From assembly GCF_003334765.1 (NCBI RefSeq), contig NZ_QOWT01000014.1: 64,000 bases of DNA; one strand, written 5' to 3'. Shown here one piece after another: positions 30,089 to 31,133 of this stretch (position 1 is the stretch's first letter; each line of letters opens with the position of its first letter). The notes beneath the pieces were generated by a model, which worked only from the letters and a program-made list of their open reading frames with translations, did no database searches and had not been told where the DNA came from. A program made the position numbers and the translations under genes. The stretch comes from Escherichia coli (GTDB lineage: Bacteria; Pseudomonadota; Gammaproteobacteria; Enterobacterales; Enterobacteriaceae).

Positions 30089-30985
30089 TTATACAAAAAG
30101 TGACAAAAAAGATCGGGTTTGATCACAGTCAGGGATCCCGGCTCGTCCACCGGGACGTGTGCATTTTAACGCCGCTACACCGCTGGCGAAGCGGACTGAC
30201 TCCGCTAAATCCCCACTTGTTGCCAGCGCCACCGCCAAAGCGCCGTGAAAAACATCACCCGCACCTGTGGTATCTACCACATCAACTTTGAAGGCCGGTT
30301 GATGCTGACGCCCACCATTTTCCAGCCAGTCGCAGCCTGCGCTACCCTGGGTCACATAGACATGACCATTTGTGAGCGTTTGTGCCTGTTTTAGCGCACT
30401 GGCCATCTCTTTCACGCCCGTTAAGCGCGCCAGACCCGGTTCTGAAAAGGCCGCGTGATCGCTTAATGCCACCAGCTCACTGATATCCTGCGGCGTAATG
30501 TCCCCGTCCAGAACGGTCATCACACCCGCCTGACGGGCCAGGGTGAAGGCTTTTTTAGCGCCGTCGTGCCAGCGTACATCTGCCAGCACAACATCCCACT
30601 GAGAGAAATCAATTTCCTCCAACCACTCTGCGTCAGGCAGCAGATCCGGGCTGGGGTAGTTAATGATTATCCGCTCGCCTTTGGTATCCACCATGATGGC
30701 GGATTGCGAAGATTTCGCCTGGTTATACCGTTTGGTGTAACGGGTGTTAACGCCCCAGGATTCCAGCTCTGCCAGCAGGCTGTTGCCCGTGTCGTCATCA
30801 CCTACGCGACCAATAAAATCGACCTGCGCCCCCAGCCTTGCCGCCGCAACCGCTGCCGTCGCCGCTGGCCCGCCACCAACTTCCGTATAATTTCTCGCCA
30901 CGTATTTACCGCTCTCCGTCGGTAACCCTTCCACGTAATAGATGCGATCCATCACGGTTATACCTACACAAGCAACACGAATCAT
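30089..30985 (-). CDS. yihV: Sulfofructose kinase (PfkB/ribokinase family)
   Basis: Start at MIRVACVGITVMDRIY...; PfkB signature DTTGAGDVFHGA; 298 aa. Confidence 0.9.
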   Translation of the reverse strand: MIRVACVGITVMDRIYYVEGLPTESGKYVARNYTEVGGGPAATAAVAAARLGAQVDFIGRVGDDDTGNSLLAELESWGVNTRYTKRYNQAKSSQSAIMVDTKGERIIINYPSPDLLPDAEWLEEIDFSQWDVVLADVRWHDGAKKAFTLARQAGVMTVLDGDITPQDISELVALSDHAAFSEPGLARLTGVKEMASALKQAQTLTNGHVYVTQGSAGCDWLENGGRQHQPAFKVDVVDTTGAGDVFHGALAVALATSGDLAESVRFASGVAALKCTRPGGRAGIPDCDQTRSFLSLFV

Positions 30986-31133
30986 GGTCATTCCTTAAAC
31001 ATTTTGGGATGCGTTCATTTTAATTTCACCAATTGTTTAAAAAGTGACGGCTGTCAATTTTTTGACGATAAATTACAAATACGATCAAAAACAGACAAGC
31101 AAAGCATGTCATAAATGACAAAAAGTGACATCA
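30095..31133. promoter_or_regulatory. Candidate CsqR operators: three copies of AAAAAGTGAC plus TGTCA/TGACA inverted repeats in the yihW and yihV/yihU promoter regions
   Basis: AAAAAGTGAC at 30095-30104, 31039-31048, 31120-31129; gtcaattttttgac at 31053-31066; tgtcataaatgaca at 31107-31120. Confidence 0.4.

Follow-up and report, generated by a model that had tools for sequence, protein, structure and literature searches.

A conserved GTCAC/T-tract decamer at the csqR, yihV and yihU promoters of Escherichia coli, probably part of the CsqR binding sites

Results

The csqR-yihV-yihU locus and its repeated decamer

The window, that is, the whole 64-kb stretch of DNA analysed here, contains the E. 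coli csqR(yihW)-yihV / yihU region. The decamer AAAAAGTGAC occurs in it three times, at 30095-30104 (copy 1), 31039-31048 (copy 2) and 31120-31129 (copy 3), always on the + strand, and the 64 kb hold no other copy. Copy 1 is 40-49 nt 5' of the csqR start codon (ATG, 30055) and corresponds to yihV codons 295-298 (TCA CTT TTT GTA), because the yihV stop (- strand) occupies 30089-30091. Copies 2 and 3 fall within the 167-bp yihV/yihU spacer (30986-31152). The first-pass annotation had reported three copies at precisely these coordinates, one overlapping the end of yihV 5' of csqR and two in the divergent region, and each of these points was confirmed across the 64 kb. Absent from it were a near-copy, AAAAATTGAC, on the - strand at 31053-31062, which is inverted and matches at 9/10 positions, and a weaker copy, AAAAACAGAC, at 31087-31096. 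The tally around csqR, yihV and yihU comes to three exact copies, one inverted copy at 9/10 and one copy at 8/10. The features of the two control regions are:

30086-30093, - strand: csqR promoter -10 region TATAAAAT, placed from the mapped transcription start site (TSS); invariant in the alignment
30090-30109, - strand: tandem 10-bp units TTTTTGTCAC/TTTTTGTATA enclosing copy 1, found in long-cassette, short-cassette and Dongshaea sequences
30095-30104, - strand: copy 1, reading GTCACTTTTT on the yihV/csqR sense strand; exact 10-mer match
30118-30133, - strand: CRP-like site CCTGACTGTGATCAAA 5' of the csqR promoter, distinct from copy 1; 3 mismatches to TGTGA-N6-TCACA
31010-31022, - strand: major yihV promoter, TSS 31010-31012 and -10 TAAAAT at 31017-31022, from the published TSS and coordinate mapping
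31039-31062, no strand: 24-bp palindrome AAAAAGTGAC-GGCT-GTCAATTTTT, formed by copy 2 (31039-31048) and the inverted near-copy (31053-31062)
31053-31066, no strand: inverted repeat GTCAATTTTTTGAC of the first-pass annotation, both arms conserved
31066-31106, no strand: in vivo CsqR (YihW) ChIP-exo interval, mapped from 4071641-4071681 of NC_000913.2
31087-31096, - strand: degenerate copy GTCTGTTTTT (AAAAACAGAC on the + strand), 8/10, at the yihU transcription start
31107-31120, no strand: palindrome TGTCATAAATGACA of the first-pass annotation, distal arm 31107-31111 unconserved
31116-31129, - strand: tandem GTCACTTTTTGTCA in the yihU leader, including copy 3 (31120-31129)

The expected number of AAAAAGTGAC copies in the window is 0.13, and at least three were obtained in 0/100 dinucleotide-preserving shuffles; when only the two AT-rich regulatory stretches are considered, the probability of any exact 10-mer occurring three times is ~0.001. 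A chance origin of the repeat was rejected on these shuffle counts, on the probability within regulatory DNA and on the conservation across loci. The pattern GTCWNTTTTT has six matches in the 64 kb, five of them at the csqR/yihV/yihU control regions, and GTCA/TGAC appears seven times in the yihV/yihU spacer versus ~1 expected. The repeated units are arranged both inverted, as the 24-bp palindrome, and direct, as tandem GTCA-N6-GTCA.

A search of the other yih spacers (yihS/R, yihR/Q, yihO/ompL) returned no copy of the decamer. Degenerate units matching at 6/10 or better showed no excess over shuffles across the spacer (P = 0.05 on both strands, 0.58 on one strand), and a 10-bp phased array of such units was rejected, since pair distances are unphased and the weaker copies do not rise above composition-matched shuffles. 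De novo word enumeration placed TGTCAyTTT-type words at the top, reaching only the 95th percentile of shuffled maxima. The densest GTCA/TGAC window of the 64 kb (44540) falls in typA coding DNA and appears to be a chance cluster. An Rfam scan of 29000-32500 gave no match, and sigma-70 consensus and terminator scans over both regulatory stretches gave nothing; -35/-10 hexamers fitting the sigma-70 consensus at 16-18 bp were found in neither stretch.

Copy 1 in the csqR promoter and the end of yihV

The csqR TSS has been mapped at -27/-28 relative to the ATG (PMC5816610), and copy 1 is positioned in the csqR promoter spacer, between -35 and -10. At the orthologous position it is exact in 36/59 loci and has at most one mismatch in 54/59. 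At each of yihV codons 295-298, a single codon is used in 96-100% of 53 orthologues, and the synonymous entropy of yihV falls from a gene mean of 0.71 to 0.25-0.35 over its last 13 codons (286-298). Conserved synonymous positions in codons 286-290 overlie the CRP-like site at 30118-30133. Within the tandem at 30090-30109, TTTTTGTCA(C) is retained in all lineages examined. The csqR-proximal copy is absent in Yersinia and Hafnia, even though the DNA-binding domain of CsqR is unchanged there.

The divergent yihV/yihU spacer

The centre of the 24-bp palindrome, 31050.5, is equidistant from the yihV TSS (31010) and the yihU TSS (31091), at -40.5 in each case. Its A/T arms overlie the -35 positions of both promoters, which read ACTTTT and ATTTTT, respectively. 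The yihV TSS is reported at -25/-27, position 4071737 in U00096.2 (PMC5816610); as the sequence 17 bp upstream of the -10 is ACTTTT, yihV has no usable -35. For yihU, the -10 TACGAT lies at 31080-31085 and the TSS at 31090/31091 (-62/-63), and multiple starts together with two RNAP complexes have been reported (PMC5816610). A TTGACA on the yihV-sense strand (31052-31057) is without a -10 partner at 16-18 bp. Copy 2 is exact in 43/57 loci and has at most one mismatch in 54/57, the inverted near-copy is present in 50/57, and Dongshaea retains the palindrome as AAAAACATGACATTCGTCACTCTTTT.

Two shorter inverted repeats proposed by the first-pass annotation have their exact coordinates confirmed, and they fare differently in the alignment. 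The repeat at 31053-31066 shows conservation of 0.9-1.0 at all positions among 52 orthologues. The arm of TGTCATAAATGACA at 31107-31111 scores 0.0-0.3 across other genera, so that this palindrome is E. coli-specific; the conserved element there is the tandem GTCAyTTTTTGTCA. Each GTCA base of the tandem at 31116-31129 is kept in 46-50/52 orthologues, and the T-run varies. Copy 3 is located ~+30 to +39 from the -62/-63 yihU TSS, over minor proximal yihU starts; it is exact in only five other loci, being rare beyond Escherichia and Rahnella, and has at most one mismatch in 26/57.

Conservation across lineages

The conservation spans about 55 Enterobacterales loci. Copies persist at the orthologous sites in 50-54 of 57-59 loci, in genera that range from Escherichia to Rahnella, Pectobacterium and Buttiauxella. 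Salmonella retains all of them, and they are partly retained in Dongshaea (Aeromonadales), whose CsqR is 68% identical. Per-base counts place the conservation in the GTCAC core and not merely in the A/T tracts. It exceeds the neighbouring non-coding and synonymous background, with the exceptions of Yersinia, Hafnia and the T-run of copy 2 in the short cassette. The short-cassette spacer has no exact decamer, and its copy 2 reads ATCACTAAT, with the T-run lost. Its regulator has 72% identity, matching the Nissle value, and by this match the short-cassette sequence analysed (L064) would be the Nissle sequence. All lineages examined, the short cassette included, share an identical CsqR recognition helix.

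CsqR binding at the locus

By gSELEX and EMSA, CsqR binding is confined to the yihU/V spacer and the region upstream of yihW (PMC8006165, PMC8249747, PMC12608037), and all decamer copies fall inside the bound fragments. In the published model, a single repressor already governs both the gene that encodes it and the divergent promoters, with SQ, SQG and SR as inducers; the same arrangement, with one DeoR-type repressor, had been suggested in the first-pass annotation. The published EMSA with SQ and SR resolves binding at the level of whole fragments. CsqR is reportedly a monomer when free and binds DNA with high cooperativity, forming polymeric complexes as seen by EMSA and AFM. The K-12 protein is also reported to bind the Nissle-type (short-cassette) yihU/V fragment, and deletion of yihW in Salmonella raises yihU expression ~100-fold. 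Our literature searches returned no base-level CsqR operator sequence in the papers covered; Shimada et al. 2019 may contain more. A PDB search turned up no protein-DNA complex of the DeoR family, the sole match to CsqR being a DeoR C-terminal domain (7L6L).

The YihW ChIP-exo site at 4071641-4071681, the sole in vivo datum with base resolution, has a signal/noise of 168 (PMC8464067, supplementary file 5). The corresponding interval, 31066-31106, lies between the decamers, with no exact copy inside and one 8/10 copy. It falls within a near-invariant block (31039-31099) and contains the yihU -10 and TSS. The 8/10 copy at 31087-31096 has the consensus TGTCTGTTTTTGA, which is retained in long and short lineages. 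The minor ChIP-exo sites (glpA, ssuE and rpsJ regions) have no decamer-like sequence and are therefore uninformative.

Discussion

A candidate CsqR unit and its proposed mode of action

The decamers are probably part of the CsqR sites, because they are real, conserved and located on promoters known to be under CsqR control. The first-pass annotation had proposed them as candidate CsqR operators, a reading that is partly supported. In favour of it are their restriction to CsqR-bound regions, the conservation across genera, the overlap with core promoter elements of all three transcription units and the synonymous constraint; against it, the ChIP-exo interval sits between the copies, a short-cassette fragment is bound without an exact decamer, the TGTCATAAATGACA palindrome is unconserved, exact copy 3 is rare, weaker copies show no excess over shuffles, minor ChIP-exo sites have no motif, the 24-bp palindrome resembles a CRP site and Yersinia and Hafnia have lost the copy next to csqR. 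We lean, at slightly better than even chances, towards a GTCAC unit flanked by T/A tracts that CsqR uses in cooperative binding, with the decamers as its strongest copies.

The putative cis-element would combine a GTCAC (TGAC/GTCA) core with a T5/A5 tract, with TTTTTGTCAC as the tandem unit, and would most likely serve as a recognition or nucleation unit for CsqR; it has five strong copies. Copy 1, within the csqR promoter spacer, would provide autoregulation through a steric block between -35 and -10. The inverted pair at 31039-31062 would cover the -35 positions of the back-to-back yihV/yihU promoters, with further units at the yihU start site and in the yihU leader. We postulate that CsqR nucleates on these units, contacting their bases, and spreads between them to fill ~90 bp (31039-31129), thereby occluding both core promoters. 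CsqR is released by sulfoquinovose, by its glycerol glycoside and by sulforhamnose. It is probable that the palindrome also acts as a class II CRP site, and repressor and activator would therefore compete for the same DNA. A fuller version of this proposal appears possible but doubtful. Here, the 24-bp palindrome would act as the primary operator of CsqR and, at the same time, as a class II CRP site shared by the two promoters, with base-for-base competition governing the catabolic and the kinase/regulator operons; a circularly permutable 10-bp TTTTTGTCAC would be recognised in direct and inverted arrays; and one unit in the C-terminal codons of yihV would fix codon choice and possibly the SLFV tail of the kinase.

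Alternative readings of the repeat

It is also conceivable, if rather unlikely, that the near-invariant block in the centre of the spacer, at ~31066-31106 (ATAAATTACAAATACGATCAAAAACAGACA) over the yihU -10 and +1, is the true high-affinity operator of CsqR, with the decamers in an auxiliary or other role. The ChIP-exo interval coincides with this block, which is the sole part of the spacer conserved in long, short, Klebsiella-type and Dongshaea lineages, all with an identical recognition helix. Furthermore, the short-cassette fragment bound by K-12 CsqR has the block and lacks the decamers, and conservation of every base of a promoter spacer implies a bound protein. However, nothing corresponding to this block exists in the region 5' of csqR, which is also bound by CsqR, and the sole element common to both regions is the GTCAC/T-tract unit. 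The block itself includes an 8/10 decamer copy, and a polymeric complex may give inner ChIP-exo borders, given that 31066 and 31106 exactly abut GTCA/TGAC clusters.

Two further readings do without CsqR recognition of the decamers. CRP strongly binds and shifts the yihV/yihU fragment, and a conserved CRP site is described at -41.5 of the yihW promoter (PMC5816610). The decamers could accordingly be CRP half-sites (AAAAGTGAC versus the consensus half AAATGTGAT), with the palindrome as a shared class II site and CsqR binding elsewhere, which we judge improbable. CRP may share or own the palindrome, because neither of the two promoters for which it sits at -40.5 has a -35 and it looks CRP-like: its core, AGTGA-N6-TCAAT, has 3/10 mismatches to TGTGA-N6-TCACA, retains the G, G and A that are critical in one CRP half, and TCAC and GA(CA) are the bases shared by all lineages. 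But class II geometry (centre near -41.5, no -35) is seen for the 24-bp palindrome only, copies 1 and 3 have no partner CRP half-site at N6, and 16-mers with at most three mismatches to the CRP core occur in the window at chance frequency (195 found versus 216 expected). The left arm conserves TTGAC/ATGAC (TGAC, not GTGA), with T fixed where CRP needs G; copy 1 occupies ~-13 to -25 of the csqR promoter, where the CRP site is a different one (30118-30133); and the recurrence of one 10-mer at three differently positioned sites would be left unexplained. A reading of the repeats as promoter architecture, in which A/T tracts and TTGACA-like hexamers provide curvature, UP-element-like contacts and overlapping promoters in a promoter island, is very improbable. 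It agrees with a spacer GC of 31-36%, the several yihU starts and two RNAP complexes, the TTGACA at 31052-31057 and the finding that weak decamer matches are no commoner than in shuffles. Against it, conservation extends beyond the tracts to the GTCAC core, this TTGACA is without a -10 partner and the consensus scan is blank there, and copy 1 is fixed at synonymous sites although it lies in a promoter spacer, a stretch without base-specific requirements of RNAP.

Implications and comparison with known systems

Sulfoquinovose ranks with the most abundant organosulfur compounds, and sulfoglycolysis has the yih cluster as its reference system. A conserved unit with exact positions, if true, would assist the design of CsqR-based SQ biosensors, and its degraded copies in the short (Nissle-type) cassette could explain the lack of SQ induction there. 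It would also illustrate how repressor and CRP are laid out on a very compact divergent control region, and the intragenic copy would be a clear case of a regulatory site constraining synonymous codons. The known logic of yih regulation is unchanged by any of these points.

The locus, the regulator and the two bound regions are those of the published CsqR (YihW)/yih sulfo-EMP system (Shimada 2019; Kaznadzey 2018; Sharma 2021; Gao 2021; Kaznadzey 2025). Agreement extends to repression, induction by SQ, SQG and SR, cooperative binding and the involvement of CRP. What goes beyond that system is a candidate unit that is conserved, the placement of its five copies with respect to the mapped starts, and the constraint on synonymous sites in yihV.

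Within the DeoR family, GlpR of the glp regulon, a sugar-phosphate repressor, binds cooperatively to several tandem operators over core promoters, with CRP sites interleaved; its half-site (~TGTTCGAT) is unrelated in sequence to the decamer. AgaR operators consist of T-rich direct repeats about one helical turn apart, reminiscent of TTTTTGTCAC/TTTTTGTATA and GTCACTTTTTGTCA. The AgaR core is CTTTC, unlike the one here, and our locus has an inverted pair as well, while phasing of its weak units is statistically unsupported. UlaR is encoded beside its target and controls the divergent ulaG and ulaA-F promoters from one spacer; like CsqR, it is a local DeoR-type repressor acting on two divergent promoters from a single spacer, with a different operator sequence. 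We know of no autoregulatory site of UlaR within a neighbouring coding region. Effector binding alters the oligomeric state of UlaR (PMC10991401). Class II CRP promoters with repressor overlap share with our locus a palindrome near -41, the missing -35 and an overlapping site for a local repressor; here, the core match is weak (7/10) and at chance level, and both divergent promoters would be served by a single site, at -40.5 from each. As a whole, the locus is a known switch refined with base-level detail and not a new system.

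Repeat architecture of the csqR-yihV / yihU region

The segment at 29.3-32.1 kb of the window corresponds to the csqR(yihW)-yihV / yihU-yihT region of E. coli and matches many complete genomes at 100% identity. Compared with K-12 MG1655 over 29270-31300, it shows a single base difference and zero indels; this base (31132), located 3 bp downstream of the third decamer copy, is C in the window but A in MG1655.

Genes and promoter elements of the region; the -10 elements are inferred from mapped transcription starts.
29270-30055, - strand: csqR
30089-30985, - strand: yihV
31153 (start), + strand: yihU
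30086-30093: PcsqR -10, TATAAAAT
31017-31022: PyihV -10, TAAAAT
31080-31085: PyihU -10, TACGAT

The decamer AAAAAGTGAC, reported in three copies by the first-pass annotation, is indeed present at 30095-30104 (copy 1), 31039-31048 (copy 2) and 31120-31129 (copy 3); these are the only exact copies in the 64 kb. Shuffling gives an expectation of 0.13 copies, with three reached in 0/100 shuffles; with shuffling restricted to the two AT-rich regulatory stretches, P is ~0.001 for any exact 10-mer occurring three times. A fourth copy with one mismatch, AAAAATTGAC, lies on the opposite strand at 31053-31062 and forms with copy 2 the palindrome AAAAAGTGAC-GGCT-GTCAATTTTT (31039-31062), while a fifth, AAAAACAGAC (31087-31096), matches at 8/10 positions. 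The pattern GTCWNTTTTT has six matches in the window, five of them within the csqR-yihV / yihU region, and the 167-bp yihV/yihU spacer holds 7 GTCA/TGAC tetranucleotides against ~1 expected. The remaining yih cluster spacers were searched for decamer copies, and none were found. The repeat observation is confirmed and far from chance.

Viewed as a tandem repeat, the decamer corresponds to TTTTTGTCAC circularly permuted: the arrangement is TTTTTGTCAC followed by TTTTTGTATA upstream of csqR and GTCAC followed by TTTTTGTCAT at copy 3. A phased array of degenerate units across the whole spacer was rejected, as it did not pass the shuffle tests. The highest GTCA/TGAC density of the 64 kb lies in the typA coding sequence (44540-44706, 8 copies) and seems to reflect codon usage by chance. 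Within the yih cluster, the otherwise ordinary yihS-yihR spacer carries a GC-rich inverted element (CCCTCTCCCTAACCCTCTCCCCAAAGGGGCGAGGGGAC, 34228-34276) that looks like a dispersed intergenic repeat.

Conservation of the repeats

A YihV scan with one genome per species provided 59 enterobacterial loci. Copy 2 is exact in 43/57 loci and within one mismatch in 54/57, and its inverted partner was found in 50/57. For copy 1, inside yihV, 36 of 59 loci match exactly and 54 with at most one mismatch. Copy 3 is exact in only 5/57 and within one mismatch in 26/57; the feature kept there is a tandem GTCAyTTTTTGTCA. In a 52-sequence alignment, 31039-31099 is nearly invariant. The two inverted repeats that had been singled out earlier fare differently: both arms of GTCAATTTTTTGAC (31053-31066) are conserved, but the distal arm of TGTCATAAATGACA (31107-31120) is not. 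Dongshaea marina (Aeromonadales), whose CsqR is 68% identical, retains the palindrome in the form AAAAACATGACATTCGTCACTCTTTT and carries TTTTTGTCAG upstream of csqR.

Normalised synonymous entropy averages 0.71 over yihV as a whole but is only 0.25-0.35 across the last 13 codons. Codons 295-298 (TCA CTT TTT GTA), which form the decamer, are each represented by a single codon in 96-100% of 53 orthologues, despite six-fold degenerate Ser and Leu and four-fold degenerate Val. This entropy drop and the near-fixed codons show that the end of yihV is under non-coding constraint. A second patch of low synonymous variation at 30368-30391 (codons 199-206; ACG for 35/37 Thr, CTC for 43/43 Leu, ACA for 52/53 Thr in the 53 orthologues) reads ATTTGTGAGCGTTTGTGCCTGTTTT on the + strand, with TTTGTG twice, 10 bp apart, and may be an internal cis-element.

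In Yersinia (loci L041, L042, L046) and Hafnia (L054), GACGC, GGCGC or CACTC stands in place of the GTCAC core upstream of csqR (locus positions ~3875-3895), and the YihV C-terminus is altered to LTHFV or LTRFV. As the CsqR DNA-binding domain is the same in these loci, csqR autoregulation may have been lost there.

Promoter context and CRP

Transcription starts of all three genes were mapped by Kaznadzey et al. 2018 (PMC5816610): csqR at -27/-28 relative to its ATG (30082/30083 in the window), the main yihV start at -25/-27 (U00096.2 position 4071737; window 31010), and yihU at -15, -25, -35, -62/-63 (31090/31091) and -82/-92. On the inferred promoter elements, copy 1 lies within the PcsqR spacer. 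PyihV and PyihU both lack a usable -35, and none is detected by a consensus scan; the hexamers 17 bp upstream of their -10s, ACTTTT and ATTTTT, are formed by the palindrome's T/A arms. That promoter architecture explains the repeats is very improbable in our estimation.

The palindrome centre (31050.5) is at -40.5 from both the yihV and yihU starts, and AAAAGTGAC resembles a CRP half-site. The palindrome's AGTGA-N6-TCAAT is positioned as a class II CRP site would be for both promoters, and CRP shifted the yihV/yihU fragment (PMC5816610). However, CRP cores with 3 mismatches are no more frequent in the window than chance predicts (195 against 216 expected), and the left arm keeps TGAC, with T at a position for which CRP requires G. 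A partner half-site is absent for copies 1 and 3, and at the csqR promoter the reported CRP site is another sequence (30118-30133). CRP may share the palindrome, but an account of the decamers by CRP only is unlikely, and we conclude that CRP does not explain the repeat. The only zero-mismatch CRP core in the 64 kb, TGTGATATTTGTCACA (18661-18676), lies in the divergent fdhD/fdoG intergenic region.

CsqR binding and the candidate operators

Published work places CsqR on the yihU/V spacer and on the DNA upstream of csqR itself, in large cooperative complexes released by SQ, SQG and SR; none of these reports gives an operator sequence (PMC8006165, PMC8249747, PMC12608037, PMC10991401; Shimada et al. 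2019 is outside this set). The sole base-resolution datum is a YihW ChIP-exo site at 4071641-4071681 with signal/noise 168 (PMC8464067, supplementary file 5), in NC_000913.2 coordinates. With the yihV ATG at 4073739 in version 3, a 1,977-bp version offset reproduces the published TSS coordinate exactly and places the site at window 31066-31106, between the palindrome and copy 3. This interval holds the yihU -10 and +1 and the 8/10 copy, with zero exact decamers. On either side the interval directly adjoins a GTCA/TGAC cluster (31039-31066 and 31107-31130); it may accordingly mark the middle of a polymeric complex, represent a pair of inner borders, or be the real primary operator.

A short yihTUVW cassette, ~67% identical, occupies the same locus in 1327/5353 complete E. 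coli genomes (about a quarter). Its E. coli form is described in PMC12608037; it adds a zinc alcohol dehydrogenase and an MFS transporter (E. coli O177:H21 locus L064, 1242-5972; also L070-L072) and is found in Trabulsiella, Superficieibacter and Buttiauxella as well. The cassette's regulator shares 72% identity with CsqR, the value also stated for Nissle 1917, and has the same recognition helix; K-12 CsqR is reported to bind the Nissle yihU/V fragment, and Nissle YihW the K-12 fragment (Kaznadzey et al. 2025). Comparison of the short cassette of four genera with the Klebsiella-type locus and Dongshaea leaves four common elements.

Elements shared by the three locus types.
Upstream of csqR: TTTTTGTCA(C)
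Block: CGTCTGTTTTTGAnCnTATTTGTAATTT
At the palindrome: nGACA-N3/4-RTCAC
-10: TAAAAT

In the short cassette the copy 2 T-run is lost (ATCACTAAT), and the GTCA repeats near yihU have a different arrangement that includes GTCATTATTTTGTCA on the opposite strand. Given the reported cross-binding, these loci indicate that CsqR binds without needing exact decamers; judged from sequence comparison, the common denominators are a GTCAC core with adjoining T-tract, and the central block.

The proposal that the decamers are CsqR operators stands in part: the published binding regions, conservation and promoter overlap favour it, but the ChIP-exo interval lacks exact decamers, which themselves appear dispensable for binding. 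We lean, by a modest degree, towards the decamers being the strongest copies of a CsqR recognition unit, positioned where binding would block PcsqR, PyihV and PyihU. In the main alternative, which is rather unlikely, the primary operator is instead the central block detected by ChIP-exo. What the analysis adds is base-level detail; the regulatory system is already published and belongs to a well-known kind.
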